A DNA stretch of 64,000 nucleotides, taken from positions 156,612,001 to 156,676,000 of the forward strand of contig OX597815.1 in the NCBI GenBank assembly GCA_951406725.2, given 5' to 3'. The translations under genes were made by a program, and so were the position numbers. Shown here piece by piece: positions 10,164 to 45,135 of this stretch. The notes beneath the pieces are model-generated. The model was not told the origin of the DNA and ran no database searches. It saw only the letters and a program-made list of their open reading frames with translations. How positions within the stretch are numbered: the first letter of the stretch is position 1; the number at the start of each line of letters is the position of its first letter. The DNA is from Octopus vulgaris (Eukaryota).

Positions 10164-11035
10164 AAACACACACATATATATATAATAAATAATAAAGGAC
10201 ACGAAATACGTAAACAACAAAAATAAGATGGAAAACAGGACAAATAAACACACATATTTATATTTATGTACACAAGCACAAATACATATATAACTATATA
10301 TGCATCTCTCTCTCTCTCTCTCACTCTCTTTCTCTCTATCTTCCTATATATATGTATATAATTTATATATAAATTAATATATATATAAATTAATAATAAA
10401 AGGGTAAAATTTTTCAGTTAAATTAATTAATTGATCAATCAATTGATTAATAATTTTACCAAGTTTAACTCCTATTTCGAAATTCGGTATGTTGTGAAGC
10501 AATTAGCTGAACCTTAATTATAATTATAATTATGATATACATACATACATACATACATACATACATACGTAAGTACGTACGTACGTACGTACACACACAC
10601 ATACATACATACATACATACATACATACATACATACATACATACATACATACATACATACATACATACATACATACATACATACATACATAGATTATTGT
10701 TTAAAGCAGTTTCATTCTGTTGTATGCAACTTGAAGTTTCGTGGGCGAAAATTGAAGTCGCATTCAGCAAAATCAGGTTGTTCCAAAGAATAGAACATGT
10801 GACTCTCACCTAATATGTTGAGTGTCATTCTCTTTTGTTTGTCCACTCACTTGTATATACATACATGTGTGTGTGTGTGTGAATGTTTGTGAATGTGTGT
10901 GAATGTGTGTGCGTGTGTGTGTTTGTGTGAGTGAGTGTGTATACTCACACACACATACACCCACACACTTTCAACCCAGAATTAATATTTTCTCTAATCA
11001 TTGGCTCGCGCTCGATATATATACATATATATATA

Positions 11036-12323
11036 CGAGGGCCGTTCAAAAAGTAATGCCCCTGACCCACTTCCCATAGCAGTAGAGCAACGAAACTTGG
11101 CACAGTTATTAGTCTTTTTCTACATAGGAACCACCCAGAGTTACGCATCTCTCCCATTGTTTAATGCAGCTCTGGAGACCGTTTTTGTAGAAGATCCCAG
11201 CTTGGTCCTCCAACCTGAACGTGACTTCAGAAATCAAGGCTGCATCATCTGGGAAACGCTTTCCTTTCAAAAACAACTTCATGGCTGGGAAGAGGTGAAA
11301 ATCAGAAAGTGCAAGGTCAGGAAAGTAGGGGGATGGGGGAGGAGTTCATAGCCATACGCCTGTGCTTCTGATCTGGCGAAAAGCCAGTTGTGGACCGGAG
11401 CGTTGTCCTGCAGGAGGAGAATGTCTTTGCTGATCTTGCCCCGCCTCTTGATTTTGATAACTTCTCTGAATTTCCTCAAAAGTGAAGCATAATAGGCTCC
11501 TGCAATTGTGGTACCCTTTGCCAGGAAATCTGTCATCACTACTCCGTCCTGGTCCCAGAAGACTGTGAGCATGACCTTGCCAGCGGAGGGCTGCACCCTT
11601 GCCTTCTTTGGAGGGGTGAGTCACGGTGCTTCCACTGCATTGACTGGGCTTTGGTCTCTGGATCATCGTGATGGACCCAGGTTTCATCCTGTGTAATCAG
11701 TCTTTTGAAAAATTTTGACTCATCTTCTTGGCACATCTCCAAATTCACCCTCGAGCACTCGACGCGTTCTTGCTTCTGGAAAGGCGTGAGCAACCTGGGA
11801 ATCCATCTGGCAGACACCTTTTGCATATGCAAATGGTCATGAATGATAGTTTCCACAGACCCGGTACTAATCTTGACCTCATGGGCTATTTGCGAATAAT
11901 TATGCGTCGATCTTCCAAAATGGCAGCCTCAACTTGACGGACAGATGCCTCATCAATGGCAGAAGGGGCGAGCAGATATGGGAGCTGTTTCCACAGAGTT
12001 CCGACCATCTTTGAATTCACGATGCCAGCGTTTTACAAGGTCATATGATGGGGCATCATCACCATAAGTTACTTTCATTTCATCAAAAGTCTCCCGTGGT
12101 GTGCGTCCTTTCAAATACAAAAACCGGATCACTGCTCGACACTCAACAGGCTCCATTTCACACTTGACTCGGTTCAAACACCTGTAAATCAGAAACCACA
12201 ATTAATTCAGAGTTGTAATTTGCCACTTACTCTATAGAGATATAAATGATTGCACCTGCAAAATGTCAGCTAGATCAAACAACTGCAAGTGGGTCAGAGG
12301 CATTACTTATTGAACGTCCCTCG
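11036..12323 (-). mobile_element. Full-length mariner (Tc1/mariner, DD34D-type) transposon
   Basis: About 37-bp imperfect TIRs CGAGGG(C/A)CGTTCAA(A/T)AAGTAATGCC(C/T)CTGACCCACTT, TA on both flanks, 1288 bp. Confidence 0.95.
11109..12156 (-). pseudogene. Mariner transposase, frameshifted
   Basis: MEPVECRAVIRFL..., WIPRLL, DETW, QDNAPVH and ...CVTLGGSYVEKD* spread across several frames. Confidence 0.93.
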
Positions 12324-12778: not shown

Positions 12779-14045
12779 ATGATAAACTTAGATAAACTTA
12801 GATATGTTTCGACCAAAGATTGGTCCAGGCCATGTCTAACTTAATAGCACCACCTGATAGGATTATTTGAATCCTGTTGAAGTCAAGTTTTGTTCATGGT
12901 CCATTCAACTAGTGAGTTCTTGTTGGGTGAGATGTATCCAATTATGGGTGACTATCTGGTATTCTTTGAAGGAATCTATCCAGACTCCGTTTAAAGTTGA
13001 TGGGACCCTTATCCTCTTTGATCTCTTTCGGGACATTGTTAAATTGGCCAGGGCCTGTTGAGGAAAAGAAATTATGTTGCAGTGTACATGTATGCTGTGA
13101 TCTTGATTTGGGCAGGGGACGTATGGCCCGTGGTCCCAGTCTTGGATGAACCTTGAAGCTAATGTTCAGGTCGTTTGGGCAAAGTTGGCAGTATATTCTC
13201 CACATCGTACAAATGATATACCGCTCACGGCGACGCTGGAGAGAGTAGAGTTTCAAGGCTTTAAGGCGATCCCAATAATCGAGAGCAGCCATGCCTTCAA
13301 TTTGTTTAGTGAGTGCCCTCTGGGGTAATTCAATCCTCGAGATGTTTTGTTCTCTGGACCGGTAAGTTCTTAAGGTCTAGGAACTCATCCTACGAGATAT
13401 ATCGACCTTCTTGTTGATGTGTGCACTCCAACTGAGATCGTCATCAACAATTACACCGAGGTCTCTGATATATTAGAGGCTGTGAGCGGTTCCCGTGAAG
13501 GAAGAGAGTATGGCTGTTTTAGTGAGGAATTTCTTCCAAAATGCATCAGCTCAAATTTTCCCTTGTTCAGTTGCATTTTGTTTCTGTCTGCCCATTGACT
13601 CACAGCATATAGATCAGACTGGAGTTGAGTTCGGTCTGCTTTTTCATTGACGATTTGCTGGAGCTTAGTGTCATCAGCAAATATTTTTACTTTGCAGTAA
13701 TGTACGACACTGGAAAGGTCGTTTATGTAAATTATGAAGAGTAGCGGACCCAAGACAGTCCCCTGGGGGACACCGCTGGTGACATTTGCTGGGCTTGAAT
13801 GGACTCCATCAACTACAACATGTTGTGTTCTATTCGCCAGGAAATACTTAATCCAGTGTAGAACTTTTCCACGGATTCCGACATTTGCCAATTTTGAGAG
13901 TAGGATATTATGGTCTACCCTGTCGAACGCTTTACTGAAGTCAAGATATATGACATCAGAGTTCGAACCTGTTCCCAAGGCTTTGAGTACAACTTCAATG
14001 TGGTGTAAGAGCTGTGTTAGACAGTCCCTGCCACAGCGAAAGCCA
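12779..14045 (-). pseudogene. CR1/L2-group LINE, 5'-truncated RT and 3' end
   Basis: YLDFSKAFDRVDH, SGVPQGTVLGPLLF, IFADDTKL and LKLYSLQRRRERY; tandem TAAGTTTATC tail; internal deletion near 13370. Confidence 0.92.
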
Positions 14046-14119
14046 TATATGTATATACATGCATGTATGTTTGCATGTGTGCATATATATCTAGCAAGAT
14101 ATATACACACAAGTGTATA

Positions 14120-14167
<48 letters not shown>

Positions 14168-14539
14168 ATGTGTGTGTGTATGTGGGCGCACACACACACA
14201 CATATACACACTCATAATTAACATGACTATATATTCCTAGTGTTCGAAATGGATCATAATGTCATCCTTGTATTGTCCTTTGTACACTTTGATGATTTTC
14301 CATACAAGGTTTTTGAAATCGAAAATTATGTATTTATCTTTTGTTATTTTAATTTTCTTTGTGAAATGAAACAAATTGTAGAAGATTATGTTAACCAATA
14401 AATCAATTAATTTGTATCCATTAGATCTCTCTGTTTTATAATTCGATAGTAATATTTGATATTTTACGATAATATATTAAACCAGTGTGTCTTCGATGAA
14501 AATATGCCTCCAAGAGGATATTTATATCCTCATTACATG

Positions 14540-15652: not shown

Positions 15653-17457
15653 TCTGCATAGCCCTAATACCCCTTACAAGTGAATTAAACAGAACAGGGT
15701 ATGGGTATAAAATTGCCAATAAAAAATAAGCCATCTATTTTATATGGATGACTTAAAACTTTATGGTAAAGACAATAATGAACTTGAAGGCCTATTGCGC
15801 ACCGTGAAAGCACTCAGCGATGACATCGGGATGGAGTTTGGACTTGAGAAGTGTGCCAAGGCCACTTTCCAGAAAGGGAAAGTGAAGACCACAAATTCAG
15901 TCGTGTTAGATGTTGACACAGTCATAAGGGAGCTTGAGCAAGAACAAACATACAAATATTTAGGGATAAATGAAGGCTCTGGTATTCAGCATGCAAGCAT
16001 GAAAGAGAAGATCAGGAAGGAATGTTATAGGAGAGTTTGTGCAGTCCTGAAATCTGAACTAAATGCACGTAACAAGGTGTTAGCTATAAATTACTTAGCA
16101 GTTCCAGTTGTTACTTATAGCTACAATGTGTTGAACTGGAATATGAGTGAAGTAAAGGATATAGATAGGAAAATACGCAAGCTGCTGAGTTGTAATAGGA
16201 TGCACCACCCAAAGGCAGACGTAGATCGCCTTTACCTTCCCAGAGCCCAAGGAGGTCGAGGCCTGATCCAATTTGAACTAGCTTACAAAACAACCACAAT
16301 TGGACTGGCCAAATATCTCGAATTATCGAATGACTGGATGCTAAAGCTCGTGGAAAATCACGAGAGACGAAAGAAGCTTCATTCTATCATAAAGGAAAGC
16401 AAAAAAATTGCTATTGATCTCGTGCAGGATACCCAAACTGAACAACCCGAGGGAAGTACGGCAACTATTGTTGCAAAGAAGGTGAAAATGATGGCAATGA
16501 AAAAAGCGCACGAGCAATTGGCTGATAGGTGGGAGGAGAAACCTCTGCACGGCAAATATGTGACCCGCAGCAAACAAGCTGATGTTGACCAGAAGCAAAC
16601 CCATCAGTGGCTACGGAGCTCAGGGCTAAAAGCAGAGAGCGAAGGTTTCATCCTGGCTGCTCAAGATCAAAGCCTATTAACCCGGAACTACCAGGCCAAT
16701 GTGATGAAAAATGGAGCAGACCCAAAATGCCGATTCTGCAATGACATGATTGAAACAGTGGACCACCTAATCTCTGGATGTAAAGTCTTAGCACCAGTGG
16801 AGCATAAATTAAGACATGACAGAGTTGGCCAATATCTCCACTGGCTAATAAGTCGGCATTACAATATCAAAACTGCCGACAAGTGGTATAATCACCACCC
16901 TGAGGCTGTAACTGAAGGAGAAAATGTAACCATTCTGTGGGACTTTCCAGTACATACAGACCGAACCATCAAGGCCAATAAACCAGATATTGTTGTGAAA
17001 GACCAAAATAATAAAGTTTGCTTATTGATCGACATGAGCATCCCCTGTGATCATAATATCTCAGCGAAAGAGTTTGACAAGCTCAGAAAATATAAAGACC
17101 TACTCATTGAAATTGAGAAAATGTGGCATCTCAAGGCGGTTACAATACCAGTGATCGTAGGAGCACTAGGAATGATCAAGAAGGGAACCGAAAATTATAT
17201 GAGAATGATCCCTGGCTTACCAACCCTGCAAGAAGTGCAAAAGATTGTCTTAACTGGTACATCACACGTATTGAGAAGAGCATTGTCGATGTGAGAACTG
17301 TTGCTGCTCATGTATTTTAATTTAACTTAAAAAAAAAAATGAACGAACTATTGAGTTTGGTTTAATGGACTACCAATGTATACTATGAGTTTCTTTGCCC
17401 TAGGAGTCGGGAAAACACTCGGCAAGAAATGGAAGCAAATTTGAAAGAAGAAAAAAG
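15651..17457 (+). mobile_element. R4/Dong-like non-LTR retrotransposon, 5'-truncated, inserted in (TAA)n
   Basis: Begins mid-RT (FCIALIPL), is flanked by TAA repeats on both sides and has a short 3' UTR. Confidence 0.9.
15744..17294 (+). CDS. Uninterrupted C-terminal ORF of the Dong-like LINE: RT (YMDD), CCHC knuckle, restriction-like endonuclease
   Basis: HLFYMDDLKLY, CRFCNDMIETVDHLISGC, RHD and KPDIV..LIDMSIP..KY. The Met is the internal YMDD Met, so this is not a true start. Confidence 0.88.
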   Translation: MDDLKLYGKDNNELEGLLRTVKALSDDIGMEFGLEKCAKATFQKGKVKTTNSVVLDVDTVIRELEQEQTYKYLGINEGSGIQHASMKEKIRKECYRRVCAVLKSELNARNKVLAINYLAVPVVTYSYNVLNWNMSEVKDIDRKIRKLLSCNRMHHPKADVDRLYLPRAQGGRGLIQFELAYKTTTIGLAKYLELSNDWMLKLVENHERRKKLHSIIKESKKIAIDLVQDTQTEQPEGSTATIVAKKVKMMAMKKAHEQLADRWEEKPLHGKYVTRSKQADVDQKQTHQWLRSSGLKAESEGFILAAQDQSLLTRNYQANVMKNGADPKCRFCNDMIETVDHLISGCKVLAPVEHKLRHDRVGQYLHWLISRHYNIKTADKWYNHHPEAVTEGENVTILWDFPVHTDRTIKANKPDIVVKDQNNKVCLLIDMSIPCDHNISAKEFDKLRKYKDLLIEIEKMWHLKAVTIPVIVGALGMIKKGTENYMRMIPGLPTLQEVQKIVLTGTSHVLRRALSM

Positions 17458-23865: not shown

Positions 23866-24368
23866 ACTTTTTCAATTCCTGAGTGTTATACTGTTTGTTT
23901 TGTACACCACCTGTCTTCGTCTTTTGTTGTTTTTTTTTTTTTTTCGTGAACTCTCCCTATATATATATATATGAGAAAAAGTGAGTTCAAAAAGTACAAT
24001 TCAAACTTTTGTGGGAATCCAAAAAGAGAGAAAAAAATGATTTTCAATAAAGATTAATCATATTCATAAAAAAACAGCCAGAGCAAGTAATAAGAATATG
24101 AAAATAATATTTGAGGGGTTTCGTTATAAAGAAGTATAAAAATCTGGAGAAAAAGTGTTGAATCAGAAATAGATTTATTACAAAATTGGATTCAATGCAC
24201 ACGTACTTTTCGAAAAACAATGCAAATGCGTTTATGTATTTATTTATTCATTTATTTATGTTCTTATCATATTCTTAGATATTTTGAGTATGGATATCTT
24301 CTATGTGTGTGCATGTATGTATGTGAACCTGTGTGGCTATGTTTATGCACTTGTATCCTTGGGTATAA

Positions 24369-24425
<57 letters not shown>

Positions 24426-24529
24426 AATTTCGTGGTACTGGTCATGCTTTGGCTCGCTCTGACACTGAGTTGAGATAATGCCTTCTAGTATCTCAAAATT
24501 TAATATACAATTATTCATAATTGTGGTAT

Positions 24530-24621
24530 CCTGCGCCGATGAGAAAAGAAGTTTCGGTAAAGTAGAATTTTCTAATTCTTATGCTCTCCTAAAACTTGAT
24601 TTCGAAACGGACGTCCGTAGG
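24530..24621 (+). ncRNA. Type I hammerhead ribozyme motif, copy 1 (CCGAUGA core)
   Basis: Stem I CCTGCG/CGTAGG; core CCGATGA; stem II GAAAAGAAGTTT/AAACTTGATTTC; GAAAC-ggac-GTC; predicted cut after C24615. Confidence 0.72.
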
Positions 24622-25117
24622 TAACTTAAAATTGCATGATGGATTGCCGTCATTTCATTCTTTCTTTCTTACCTGTCTGTGTTTGCCTTTCAAGTGCTGT
24701 GTTTTTACTGAGATACCCCTTTTAGTAGAAGGAATAGCTATATCTCTTTGACTGCTATTTCTAAATTCGGTGTGTTGGTGAGGCAATTCGTTGCTAAACC
24801 CTTAATTACTTAGTATTACTTAAATTTTCCTCGAATGGGGCTTTTACATGCCGAAATCTACTTGGTGTAATTGATAATTATTCCAAATTAATTAATTTCA
24901 CCCTTTATTATTACTGATAATGATATTTTATCCCAGTAAATGACGGCAGCATTTTGTCTTGGCTACACGCGGGTGGAAGGGGGCTGGTGACACAAACTTT
25001 CATTCAAACTTTGAATTTCGTGGTACTGGTCATGCTTTGGCTCGCTCTGACACTGAGTTGAGATAATGCCTTCTAGTATCTCAAAATTTAATATACAATT
25101 ATTCATAATTGTGGTAT

Positions 25118-25209
25118 CCTGCGCCGATGAGAAAAGAAGTTTCGGTAAAGTAGAATTTTCTAATTCTTATGCTCTCCTAAAACTTGATTTCGAAACGGAC
25201 GTCCGTAGG
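25118..25209 (+). ncRNA. Type I hammerhead ribozyme motif, copy 2
   Basis: Identical to copy 1; predicted cut after C25203. Confidence 0.72.
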
Positions 25210-25445
25210 TAACTTAAAATTGCATGATGGATTGCCGTCATTTCATTCTTTCTTTCTTACCTGTCTGTGTTTGCCTTTCAAGTGCTGTGTTTTTACTGAG
25301 ATCCCCCTTTTAGTAGAAGGAATAGCTATATCTCTTTGACTGCTATTTCTAAATTCGGTGTGTTGGTGAGGCAATTCGTTGCTAAACCCTTAATTACTTA
25401 GTATGTATATGTATATGTATATATATATATATGCATATATATATA

Positions 25446-25520
<75 letters not shown>

Positions 25521-25922
25521 CATATCTGCCTCTTTTTCATACACATTTTAAAAAATACTTCTTTCTTCTACCTTAATATATGTCAATCATGTAATCAACT
25601 ATATGTCGAGTTTTTTTTTCTTTTATATAAAATTTTTAAAAAACCCATTATAACGGAAAATGGCAAGGATCTTTATTTAACACAACGATCGTTTTGACCC
25701 ATCCTGCATCTGTCCCTTACGAGTGGGATATAATGCAGCTAGTTGTGTTGCATCCATCAGTATAAGGCTGCATCTCATCAGGTGCCTCGTTTTAAAAGGC
25801 AGACCTATCTATCGGTTAAAACCCCGAAAACGCTTCCATACTCTGTCAGTATAGCCAACATCCTACGGGCGACCACGACAAACCAAGAGAAATTCAGTAT
25901 ATGTAGCGAAGTGTCTTATTTA

Positions 25923-26160
25923 AAACAAGAGCACTCGGAGAGCGCAAACTTCCGACAATGCAACAAGAACGTCCTCTCAACGATTAACCAGAGATGACTT
26001 TTAAAATGGGATTATCTGAAATAGACTCGACTGCTCTCACAAACGTGAATACTAAAAATGAATCCGAACGCTCCCAAAAATTAAATAAAAAGAATATGAA
26101 AAATAATTCAGAATCCTTGTCCGATACCGGATCGATCCTAAAATCTAATAAGTCCAAATA
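25923..26160 (-). mobile_element. Possible non-autonomous Helitron/Helentron-like 3' end
   Basis: Minus strand ends in hairpin GCGCTCTCCGAGTGC followed by TCTTGTTT. Confidence 0.4.
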
Positions 26161-26164
26161 GTTA

Positions 26165-26281
<117 letters not shown>

Positions 26282-26829: not shown

Positions 26830-27010
26830 CAAAAATTGTATAGTTATGAGCATAATTATAATTAGGGTTCAGCAAGATTTGCTTCACCACATACTGAAAT
26901 TTAGAAATAGTAGTTAAAATACTATTCGACAACCATAAGCCAGACAGCAATACTCAACAACTCACGTAGATAAAGAGAAAAAAATAACGAATCCACTCGG
27001 CTCTGATTAA

Positions 27011-27092
27011 CTGTATACGCGTTTCGGTGTTAGAGAGATGTAAAAAATGTAAAATTCATATTCCAACTTACTCATTCCCTTCATGAGTACAG
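27011..27092 (-). ncRNA. Degenerate type I hammerhead motif
   Basis: Minus strand: CTGTA-CTCATGA-AGG...CC-GAAAC-GC-GTA-TACAG; G5 is mutated and stem II is weak. Confidence 0.5.
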
Positions 27093-27546
27093 TATTTAAA
27101 ATTTTAAATTTGAGAGTACTGATAATTAACATACGTATTTATTATATATATGTGAGTGTGTATGTGTGTGGGTGTGTGCGTGGGTGTGTGCGTGTGTGTG
27201 CATATTATTAACCGAATCACCTAAGACTTAGTAAATTATGCAAGAGCGATATATAAAAATACAAAGAGAATTAGTGAAGCAGGAAGATCCTGCAGAAGTT
27301 ATATTTTTTGAGGTTCATTATTCCCAATAATCAATTTTGTAGAGCGATGCGTGAAAAATCTAGCAACCAAGTGAAAGAAAAGATAGTTGGTAATTTTACA
27401 GGGATATAATTTTTTATAGATTCCTGATTAGCTTCAATAATCTAGAATCATCGATCTTATTTTGTTTATCTGTTTAACTTATTTTAACGCATTTATATAC
27501 TTCTTAATTAGAATTTGTTGGATGTTAATTCATCTTTATAAAATTA

Positions 27547-29932: not shown

Positions 29933-30005
<73 letters not shown>

Positions 30006-30621
30006 TCAATAAATGGTGGGGTTGTGTTGACCGCACGTGGAGAAATGATAAGTAAGGAAACATTTTTTATAAAAATTGCAGAATGCTCAAATGAAAGAAA
30101 ATTTTAATAAAATGAGAAAATGATAAAATATATAAATATATATTTATTCAACCGGTTTTCGTCGAGGTGTTAAGATCCAAAGGGATTAAGAGCATGTGTT
30201 GTGTTGTGTTGTTAAATTCAGCATGTTTGCAGGACAGGAAGTAGTAGTAATTGTGGTCCTGGTTCTTCAGTTCCTGTGTTGTGAGTAAGGGGAGACAACT
30301 CTTTTGAGTTCTTCAATAAAACCCAAATTATAAAACTATCATTTTAGCTTCATTTGCATTATCTTTTTTATATAATTGCTTGTTAACTTAACTTTCAGAT
30401 TTTAACACTTTATTTATATTATTTTCTAATAATATAAATCTGCATAGACAATTGCATTTCAAATTGTCATATCATTTATAATAAAAATGATAGTAATAAC
30501 AACAATAGTAAAAATGATATTTAAAGAATATAAGTTTTAGCTTGAAGTGATGAATGCATGGTATCTTTATATATTTGTGTTAGTCCATCCATGAAAAGTG
30601 AGGTAGAGAAAGGAAGTTTGA

Positions 30622-30985
30622 TCAACTTGGAGTTTGCATATTAAGTTGTGTTTGGAATTTTTCAATAAAGAGATTCTCCTTGTTAATTCTCTCCTGTGTG
30701 GTGATCCCGTCTTTACATTGGTAGAAGGGGAATATATAGAATTTGGGGTTTAAGTCTTTAGCACATGAGTCTAAGTGGTCACTCAGTGGAATTTGTCGGT
30801 ATTCCGGGAGATTTATTTGTTCTTTATGCACCGTTACTCGTTTACGTAACGGGAGACTCGTTTGTCCAACATAATTATGTTGGCAACCAGCGCATGTGAG
30901 AACGTAGATAAGGTTCTCGGAGGAACAGGAGAAGTTAGTCTTGATTTTAAACTTCGTACCTTGTTTGAAGGTAAATTCAATTTTT
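30622..30985 (-). pseudogene. Penelope-like GIY-YIG endonuclease 3' fragment
   Basis: [58 protein letters not shown]; 5'-truncated at a (TA)n tract. Confidence 0.88.
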
Positions 30986-30990
30986 CCTTA

Positions 30991-42649: not shown

Positions 42650-45135
42650 TTGTCTTTGCACAGCTTCTAACGCTGGAGACGTACAACGGTGCCAGCTGTT
42701 CACTACCAGTGAACTAAATTAACACCCCTTATTTTTCGAGCACCATCCAGAGTATCAGAGCGGTTCCAAGCAGTGGTTTTCTGCAAATGCTCCACCCTTA
42801 TTGCAGCCCTTATTTCTACCATGTACTTCTCAAGGTTTTTACTCACTGTTCCCAGGACTCCGACAATTATTGGTACTACTACCACCTTTTTCAGCGACCA
42901 CAGTTGCTTAACCTCCCAAGCTAACATGTCATATCTATCGACTTTTCTTTCTTCCTTATCGCTTACCTTGTTGTCAGCTGGGCATGCTATATCTATGATC
43001 CAGCATCGTTTGCTTTCTTTCTCAATTAACACTATGTCTGGCTTTCTATTCTCTATCCCATGTTTGCATTGAATCATAAAATCCCATAGGATCTTTGCAT
43101 TATCATTTTCGATGGTGCCAACTTTTTTTCTCTGTCAAGTCCATACTTGTGGCAAAGTGTCCAAAGGACAATCCTCGCTATATTGTCAAGACGTCTCTTA
43201 AAAGTTTTGTGGGCTTGGGGTGTACATTGACTGGTAATATGCCCTAAGGTTTCACCATTTTCTTCACAAGTTCTATACTTATTACTGTCCGATGTGTTGT
43301 CTATTCTATATTTGATGTAATTCATTCTTAGTGCTTGTTCTTGGGCAGCACAGATTAGAGCCTCCGTTTTTGGTTTTAAATAACTTTTAGTCATCCATAG
43401 CCATCTTTTTTCTCTGTCCGTCTTATCTTCAACATCCCTATCAAATTTTCCATGCATTCTTTTCTTTATCCACCTATTTTCAGTTTCATTGCTTCTCTAG
43501 TGCTTGTACAATGCTTTATTTTTGCACTCTTCCATCTCACATAAGCCTGAACTTCTTACTTCCAAAGATAGTGGTTCTGTGGCATTTTTTACATACCATG
43601 TTTTCTTCTGCTCTAATGCTGTGTTTGCATCCAATCAGTCCTTATCCTCCTCTTCTTTAGGTACATACAGTCTGTCTGTCACTTTTTTGGTGGAGTATCC
43701 CATATCTAGTCAGCGACTTCTTTGTCTTTTTGCCTAAGCAGTTTAGTTTGTTTACTGTCCATGCGATCACCCCTGCTCTATATCTAAGGAGTGAAACAGC
43801 CCAGGTGTTGATAGCTTCAATCTTATTCCGCCCGTTTAATTTCGACTTAAGTATCAGTCTCAGGCCGCACAAGTACTCCACCTTAATTTTTTTCTGTCAT
43901 TTCTTTCTCCATCAATTTATCCATTTCCAATAACTTCAAATTCTTATAGCCCATCTCTTCTATCTGCTTCAGAACCTCCCCCGATAGTATCTCTAGCCCA
44001 TCCACACATTTGATTTTGCCACTCGTCAAGACTAGCACACCACGCTTTTTCAGTTCGAATTCCATTCTGACATCAACACTGAAAGTATACACCGCATCAA
44101 CGAGGCTACTGACTTGGGATTCATCTTTACTATAAAGTTTGAGGTCATCCATGAATAACAAGTGGCTGATTTTTGTTGGCGGTTCTTGAATACATACTCA
44201 GCCTTTGCTTTCCTCAGAATCAGTGTTAGTGGTATCATGCACAGAACAAAGATCAGTGGGGACAGGCAGTCCCCTTGGAAGATGCCTCTCCTGATTTCTA
44301 TTGTCCCTAAACTTCTTCCATATGCTGTCAGTTCCGTCCTCCACTTCGCCATACTTTTTCCAAGCAATCGCTCAACATTCGATGCAATAACAAATAGGTT
44401 CATACATTCCATAATCCAAGAATGTGGGATCATATCGTTACGCCTTACGATCCATGACATGGCTTAGTTAGTTTTCCTCCTCTTGCAGTCTATAAGTACA
44501 GTTCTGTCTACCAGGAGTTGATACTTGGTACCTCTGCACTTACGCTTGCAACCCTTCTGCTCATGTGGCAGGACTCCATTTTTTCCCATATCTCCGTACA
44601 TTTACTCTGCGACTATTCTAGTCAATAATTTCCATATAAGTGGCAAGCAGGATGTCGGCGTTTAATTGTTTACCGTATTGCCTTTTTTGATGTTCTTCAA
44701 GCACAGCAGTGTCCTACCTACTGTTAACCACTCTGGCGTTTCTTGGTTGGCATTAAACAAGGTGTTGAGTTGTGCAGCTTTTCGTGCATGACATTCACCA
44801 AATCTTTTGATCCAGTAGCCTTGAATTCTATCTGGTCCCAGGGCTTTTCTGTTGCCTATTTTTTGCTGATTTCCTTCACTTCCCTAACTGAAATGACTAG
44901 TTCTACCTGTTTTGAACAGACTCCTGTTTGTTTCAGTTCTTGTAACCATTCAGCATCCTTCTTGTGCTCTTTGTCTTTGCACCAGATGTCACACCAAAAC
45001 CTTCGTCTTTCAATGGTATCTGGTTTCAACTTTTCATCCGTAAACTCTTCATTTATTTCTTTGTTGAATCTCTTCTCATCTAGTCTGAATAACCTATTGT
45101 GCTGGTATCCTGGTATCCTGGTATCCCTTCATCTT
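42650..45135 (-). pseudogene. R4/Dong-like LINE, degenerate RT plus RLE
   Basis: IPHSWI, RRGIFQGDCLSPLIF, LFMDDLKLY, TEALICAAQEQAL and RKPDIVLI..IIDIACP, with many frameshifts. Confidence 0.9.

Follow-up and report, generated by a model that had tools for sequence, protein, structure and literature searches.

A probable non-autonomous retrozyme of Penelope-like dependence, built from a 588-bp hammerhead unit, in a contig of Octopus vulgaris

The insertion described here is best explained as a non-autonomous retrozyme. It is a non-coding tandem of a 588-bp unit that is present in multiple copies, and the reverse transcriptase (RT) and GIY-YIG endonuclease of a Penelope-like element (PLE) probably copied it to its site in a (TA)n tract. 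A rough probability of 75% is given to this reading. The insertion lies in a 64,000-nucleotide stretch of contig OX597815.1, defined here as the window, and all coordinates count from its first letter. Like animal genomic DNA, the window is rich in microsatellites, with several fragments of RT and one of GIY-YIG. No tRNA gene was found within it. The features are listed in Table 1.

Table 1. Position and strand of the insertion, its hammerhead motifs and related features of the window.
Feature	Coordinates	Strand	Remark
(TA)n tract, left part of likely insertion target	24364..24422	.	period 2, 29.5 copies
Whole insertion, 983 bp	24422..25404	+	1.67 head-to-tail 588-bp units, from repeat comparison
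Repeat copy 1, 395 bp	24422..24816	+	24715 A unlike copy 2 and nearly all public contigs
Hammerhead motif 1, type I	24530..24621	+	predicted cut after 24615
Motif 1, stem I (CCTGCG/CGTAGG), 6 bp	24530-24535/24616-24621	+
Motif 1, core CCGATGA	24536-24542	+	U4C at 24537
Motif 1, domain II, 61 nt	24543-24603	+	closed by GAAA/TTTC
Motif 1, GAAA	24604-24607	+
Motif 1, stem III octamer	24607-24614	+
Single-copy part of unit, 193 bp	24817..25009	+	second family 3' end near 24915-24919 (loose contig ends into (TA)n)
Repeat copy 2, 395 bp	25010..25404	+	ends at the family's first 3' terminus (unit coordinate 24816)
Hammerhead motif 2, type I, identical to motif 1	25118..25209	+	core at 25124; predicted cut after 25203
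Predicted 588-nt monomer between cut sites	24616..25203	+	prediction
TATGTA/(TA)n tract, right part of likely target	25402..25448	.	followed by (TAT)n at 25446-25520
Diverged, decayed relative	26850..27160	-	same 3' terminus, then (TA)n; 1.5 kb from element
Hammerhead of this relative	27093-27010	-	stem I ACTGTA/TACAGT; core CTCATGA (G5C); 55-nt domain II; palindrome ACGCGT
Short 3'-terminal remnant of related subfamily	10464..10520	+	E 5.6e-8; beside (ATAC)n
PLE GIY-YIG fragment, C-terminal domain	30622-30987	-	long relatives carry RT and Cys linker

The two direct repeats recur with a period of 588 nucleotides and differ at a single position (24715 A, 25303 C). The unit has a GC content of 36.6%. 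Its longest ATG-initiated ORF, read on a circle, is 48 amino acids, the longest stop-free frame is 67 codons, and no coding remnant was found in six frames. A target-site duplication cannot be read at the insertion because TA-type microsatellite borders it on either side. Neither the window nor the public contigs showed two complete units or a longer array. The sequence-only reading had described near-identical repeats, the lack of an ORF and (TA)n-type tracts on both sides, and each of these descriptions holds.

Each repeat contains one hammerhead motif, which is of type I since stem I is the open helix. Downstream of GAAAC, both motifs have a 6-nucleotide loop region and then GTC. A scan requiring at least 6 bp in stem I and at least 4 bp in stem II returned these two matches in the window and none in each of 12 dinucleotide shuffles, so the motifs are not attributed to chance. 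A search of Rfam returned no hammerhead at the gathering score and none among the 24 matches listed at E ≤ 10. Stem III is just 2 bp long in the monomer and is absent from the predicted ensemble (p 0.00). Predicted cuts 588 nucleotides apart and a non-canonical core had both been proposed from sequence alone, and both were recovered. A GT-AG intron look-alike at 24621-24694 was rejected; no such joint occurs among the three listed, and family members differ at both splice letters.

The stretch is present, whole or in part, in 20 of the 24 public sequencing runs listed, which come from 8 studies and carry 2 organism labels. Contigs of 4 runs (4 studies, 2 organism labels) were aligned to one unit (24422-25009) at a threshold of 82%, and 1970, 1675, 80, and 41 contigs aligned, respectively. 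Two of the 4 runs are DNA, and no run with the stretch is listed as RNA; runs guessed to be RNA contain the family, and contigs cannot show ends, strand or circles. The joint between the end and the start of the unit (25009 to 24422) was found in all 4. For the two DNA runs its shorter side is 27 and 28 letters long, under the caution line of 30; for the other two it is 55 and 87 letters. Position 24816/24817 is bridged by 4 of the 32 pieces listed, from 3 runs, with at least 31 letters on each side. Because both junctions occur in public contigs, the repeat-unique-repeat arrangement comes from circularly permuting one closed 588-bp unit, which also occurs beyond this locus. An assembly artefact, which the sequence-only reading had allowed for, does not agree with junctions in independent runs.

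One 108-nucleotide contig that covers the whole hammerhead has a depth of 3803, compared with 23 to 307 in the other seven pieces listed from that run. Summed contig depth is not copy number, and this value suggests tens to hundreds of near-identical copies. None of the aligned contigs continues into unlike sequence in either DNA run. Contigs with loose ends running into (TA)n define family termini at 24816 (at least 2 contigs), 24915 (at least 1), and 24919 (at least 8). The copies thus have two fixed 3' termini that abut (TA)n. In public contigs, sequences other than the unit also join upstream of 24723-24724, over up to 255 nucleotides, and one public contig passes over 24446-24745. Further families, possibly with the helper PLE among them, may have the terminal 200 bp in common.

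The family varies within the hammerhead. The canonical U4 accounts for 34%, 75%, 12%, and 79% of depth in the 4 runs, and C4 is therefore a trait of an amplified subfamily and not a private defect of this copy. In the two DNA runs, C4 makes up as much as 66% and 25% of the depth. The family letter at 24610 is T, with about 100% of the depth in each of the 4 runs, which gives stem III the perfect palindrome ACGUACGU. An A-to-G variant at 24611 retains the self-pairing of stem III by wobble. The change of G to A at 24533 converts a G-U pair of stem I to A-U; its share of depth in the two DNA runs is 60% and 73%. A frequent G-to-A change at 24621 disrupts the outer pair of stem I, unless a partner change is among the roughly 60 variants beyond those listed.

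Two relatives were identified in the window (Table 1). They have opposite orientations, and both stop at the first 3' end of the element beside microsatellites. The diverged relative aligns with the element at a score of 213, against 136 ± 9 with a maximum of 164 in 300 shuffles, and its hammerhead part alone scores 106 against 74 ± 6. All 6 of its stem I pairs are kept through 3 two-sided (compensatory) changes and 1 one-sided change. These pairs were counted from the hammerhead scan, because the MAFFT alignment of the two hammerheads had their 3' halves wrongly paired. An inverted tail in the AT-rich sequence upstream of the short remnant (10385-10470) scored 76 against a shuffle maximum of 82 and was not accepted.

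Stem I covariation and a stem III palindrome kept across subfamilies indicate that the hammerhead fold is probably under selection. A single-locus duplication without covariation had been named as a possible objection; what was found is a multi-copy family whose homologues covary in stem I. Outside stem I, the family variants do not significantly respect the predicted circle. Among the 40 of about 100 variants that were listed, 13 keep a predicted pair, 11 break one, and 16 are unpaired, where 14.7 ± 2.3 breaks are expected by chance (P 0.08). One clear compensatory pair is present in the unit at 24512/24519.

A second hammerhead-like motif lies on the minus strand at 25786-25678, in the sequence that adjoins the element (25521-26165). 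It has a core of CTGATGA at 25781, a 79-nucleotide domain II, and the perfect palindrome ACGATCGT. Its G12 is replaced by A, its stem I is a weak 5 bp, and it lies about 160 nucleotides upstream of a (TAT)n tract. The motif was first spotted by eye and then by a relaxed scan with 4 matches in the window and 0.15 per shuffle. It is unrelated in sequence to the element (score 104 against 120 ± 8) and is possibly the decayed end of another PLE-type family.

The proposed cycle takes its RNA steps from published retrozymes, as described in PMC7229834 and PMC4209133. A source of at least two units would be transcribed, and two hammerheads would pair through their palindromic stem III, cut as a dimer, and release the 588-nucleotide monomer. 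A host ligase would then circularise the monomer. In this highly paired circle the single hammerhead would be unable to dimerise and would stay uncut. A PLE protein would nick AT-rich DNA and start reverse transcription within the RNA, presumably at either of two fixed positions that lie about 200 and 300 nucleotides downstream of the cut site. At this locus copying would have passed both cut sites, for 983 nucleotides or 1.67 rounds. A template read through both cut sites is either a circle or an uncut multimer, and the data do not separate the two. The predicted fold of the circular monomer is -151.3 kcal/mol, compared with -121.7 ± 5.6 kcal/mol in 60 shuffles (z -5.2). That the family makes RNA circles is considered slightly favoured, by analogy with known retrozymes. 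Of the retrozyme interpretation offered from the sequence alone, the multi-copy, non-coding, head-to-tail hammerhead element with PLE-type hallmarks stands, and its circular RNA is a predicted step.

The copy in the window is likely a weak or silent ribozyme. Both of its repeats have G at 24610/25198, a U-to-G change that is nearly absent from the family and breaks the palindrome. With this G the octamer's self-duplex is predicted at a weaker -6.7 kcal/mol instead of -9.8 kcal/mol, and in the predicted circle the G pairs with core C3 (p 0.99). A U4C core has been reported to show considerably lower activity in vitro, with viroid infectivity still possible (PMC3088659). The copy is probably a poor ribozyme because it combines the C4 core with G24610/G25198, which are predicted to trap the core. 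In the 983-nucleotide RNA, the double-hammerhead fold is -247.9 kcal/mol and two single folds are -245.0 kcal/mol, a gain of 2.9 kcal/mol. The minimum-energy fold is -261.0 kcal/mol, and the active double fold thus lies 13 kcal/mol above it. On these models, efficient cutting by this copy seems unlikely.

The copy carries the minority letter at about 9 places per unit (in the best DNA run), against 1 difference in 395 between its repeats. This pattern suggests a single template for both repeats and an insertion that may be young. The same low divergence could also come from gene conversion, polishing or a different host species. The youth claimed by the sequence-only reading is thus suggested by the near-identity of the repeats and shared with these other causes.

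The strongest alternative differs from the retrozyme reading in the RNA step alone. Here a PLE-dependent element would spread through uncut linear tandem transcripts, the hammerhead would be a passenger inherited from a pseudo-LTR or would act with the aid of protein, and circles would be rare or absent. It is a substantial possibility, although not the favoured one. The amplified C4 subfamily agrees with it, as do the two repeats that carry a predicted-damaging G yet were copied through both cut sites. The lizard PLE PAc, as described in PMC11167929, inserts in vitro without hammerhead cleavage, which is protein-assisted, and gave no reads that end at the hammerhead cut site. In addition, 8 of 9 Xenopus retrozyme dimers were inactive in vitro (bioRxiv 10.64898/2026.07.22.740005). 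Against linear transcripts are the stem I covariation and stem III palindrome, which imply selection on the fold, the stability of the circular monomer far beyond that of shuffles, and the accumulation of coral, mussel, and axolotl retrozymes as circles (PMC7229834).

The PLE part of the retrozyme reading concerns insertion marks and a possible partner. PAc is reported to begin reverse transcription internally in vitro, at two sites downstream of its hammerhead, and to target AT-rich DNA (PMC11167929). Several PLE clades are described with a preference for (TA)n, partial tandems, and a tail at one end (PMC8557442). The window itself contains a 5'-truncated PLE (30004-30990, minus strand), which consists of the GIY-YIG C-terminus and a 3' region of about 600 bp between (TA)n tracts. 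Near 30155 this PLE has GAA followed by the palindrome AACCGGTT, and scans returned no intact hammerhead in it. EN+ PLEs have been present in this genome, and the name Neptune for their type is inferred from PMC8557442.

Comparison of the element with the 3' region of this GIY-YIG fragment gave a score of 206 against 212 ± 10, which is no similarity. Nor did it match at E ≤ 0.5 in 74 PLE loci of other organisms, taken from metagenomes. These loci contain 44 hammerhead motifs, compared with 0 to 1 in 3 shuffles. Four motifs, either antisense or inside an ORF, were set aside, and the remaining 40 come from 28 loci, many of one assembly. All 40 are on the sense strand with a palindromic stem III, a domain II of 8 to 19 nucleotides, and no C4 core. 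The palindrome filter tolerated up to 2 unpaired letters, and 39 of the 40 had none. Two loci each have two different minimal hammerheads about 290 nucleotides apart downstream of the PLE ORFs (L046 at 5419 and 5708, L068 at 2219 and 2514). A U3-A8 core covariation (TTGANAA) is common among the PLE hammerheads of loci L041, L042, L044, L046, L047, L051, L062, L063, L065, L068, and L070.

Other searches for a partner gave no match within their scope. Four 12-nucleotide motifs of the element had no matches in the supplement of PMC8557442, where line breaks and divergence may hide some, and by eye neither of two octopus Naiad consensus sequences in that supplement had a 3' end resembling the element. 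An exact 22-nucleotide terminal motif had no matches in metagenome and viral contigs, and a 21-nucleotide hammerhead motif had none in prokaryote genomes. In a word-index search of the GIY-YIG fragment against longer proteins, 0 of 63 candidates scored, and in a PLE search of viral contigs, 0 of 83 were confirmed. Mobilisation by a Penelope-like RT, as first proposed, keeps its support from the PLE-type hallmarks and gains none from sequence similarity to the window fragment or the 74 PLE loci.

Other mobile-element remnants are present in the window. RT-bearing LINE fragments were identified by Pfam RVT_1 at 15723-17294 (plus strand) and 13451-14236 (minus strand), and a third at 42703-44463 (minus strand) by look alone. 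The sequence at 11539-11928 (minus strand) is presumed by resemblance to be a mariner-like transposase fragment and has no Pfam match.

A second alternative is that the stretch belongs to an autonomous PLE, as its non-coding end (pseudo-LTR and tail), with the ORF lost at the locus or in the assembly. This is improbable. The PLE-type hammerhead, fixed ends, and target would fit such an origin, as would 170 loose contig ends beyond those listed and the 255-nucleotide unlike sequence that joins before 24723 in one run, by which other families may share the terminal 200 bp. Yet the unit is self-closing, with both junctions in public contigs and one of them at a depth of 3690; no aligned contig of the DNA runs leaves it for unlike sequence, and six frames hold no coding remnant. 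A DNA-level satellite, local duplication or mis-assembly with a chance hammerhead look-alike, consistent with the lack of an Rfam hammerhead and with family-rare changes shared by the repeats (which gene conversion or polishing could also cause), is very improbable and already largely refuted by the public-contig junctions across 4 studies and the hammerhead scan with its shuffles, along with the compensatory stem I changes and the relatives, which are dispersed, lie in both orientations and share one 3' end.

The retrozyme reading also bears on novelty. A literature search (retrozymes in cephalopods, hammerheads in octopus, long stem II, U4C) returned no description of this family, with octopus hammerhead titles judged among those listed, and the supplements of a 2026 preprint may list related families. 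A term search of the main text of an octopus repeat annotation (PMC13282606) found no mention of ribozymes. A more ambitious claim would be a PLE-dependent retrozyme lineage with a new hammerhead architecture (a domain II of 55 to 80 nucleotides that escapes Rfam and short-stem descriptors), abundant in its host, in which subfamilies crippled by U4C amplify beside canonical ones. This claim is doubtful as a whole. If true, the lineage would be a natural test of whether Penelope-type retrotransposition needs hammerhead cleavage and RNA circles. The paired U4 and C4 subfamilies could test what PLE hammerheads are for. The family is in addition a tidy example, in an invertebrate-like genome, of the marks that PLE insertion leaves (fixed ends, a target of (TA)n, and a more-than-unit copy), and has a long-domain-II hammerhead that standard searches miss.

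Among known systems, the element can be compared with animal non-LTR retrozymes, with EN+ PLE pseudo-LTRs, and with plant LTR retrozymes. It resembles animal non-LTR retrozymes (PMC7229834; bioRxiv 10.64898/2026.07.22.740005) in several ways: the units are non-coding, run head to tail and carry a single type I hammerhead, the GC content is low, the copies are many, the predicted circle is highly self-paired, and a PLE is the proposed helper. Its weak helix III is suited to dimer cleavage, as in the axolotl retrozyme. The 588-bp unit exceeds the 150 to 450 bp of animal retrozymes given by Cervera and de la Pena (2020, PMC7229834), and is within the 51 to 972 bp of Li, Clavereau and Pollet (2026, bioRxiv 10.64898/2026.07.22.740005), who argue for a PLE origin of animal retrozymes and report cleavage by 1 of 9 tested Xenopus dimers. 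Domain II is 61 nucleotides here and a 4-bp helix with a small loop in animal retrozymes. Also unlike them are the amplified U4C subfamily and a microsatellite target that masks any target-site duplication, and the element's RNA is a predicted one. From its domain II and the lack of an Rfam match, it does not belong to the canonical-hammerhead subtype of coral and axolotl, which has a 4-bp helix II, a short loop 2, and contacts of loop 1 with loop 2.

The hammerheads of EN+ PLE pseudo-LTRs (PMC4209133, PMC8557442, PMC11167929) are likewise of type I, with a palindromic helix III, in sense orientation and upstream of a fixed 3' end. The optional further 3' end, partial-tandem insertion, and (TA)n target are shared as well. 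The two 3' ends of the element are about 100 nucleotides apart, whereas the published PLE tail is 30 to 40 bp, and its domain II far exceeds that of the 40 motifs from PLE loci. A spike-moss PLE motif has a domain II of about 53 nucleotides (Craig et al. 2021 supplement, PMC8557442), so the long domain II is unusual, not unique. Unlike EN+ PLEs, the element has no RT-GIY-YIG ORF and no sequence link was found to an autonomous family; judged by this ORF content, it is not an autonomous PLE.

The repeat-unique-repeat order, the repeats of about 400 bp, and a monomer of about 600 nucleotides recall plant LTR retrozymes. Those have type III hammerheads, PBS/PPT, 4-bp target-site duplications, and Gypsy dependence. 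Here the motif is of type I, and what look like LTRs result from circular permutation of one unit. The element is not a plant LTR retrozyme. The feature expected of a PLE-derived non-autonomous element is present, namely a hammerhead with a palindromic helix III (imperfect in this copy) upstream of fixed 3' ends at AT-rich targets. Both animal retrozymes and their connection with PLEs are already published, and this family is a further member of a class that comes as no surprise.
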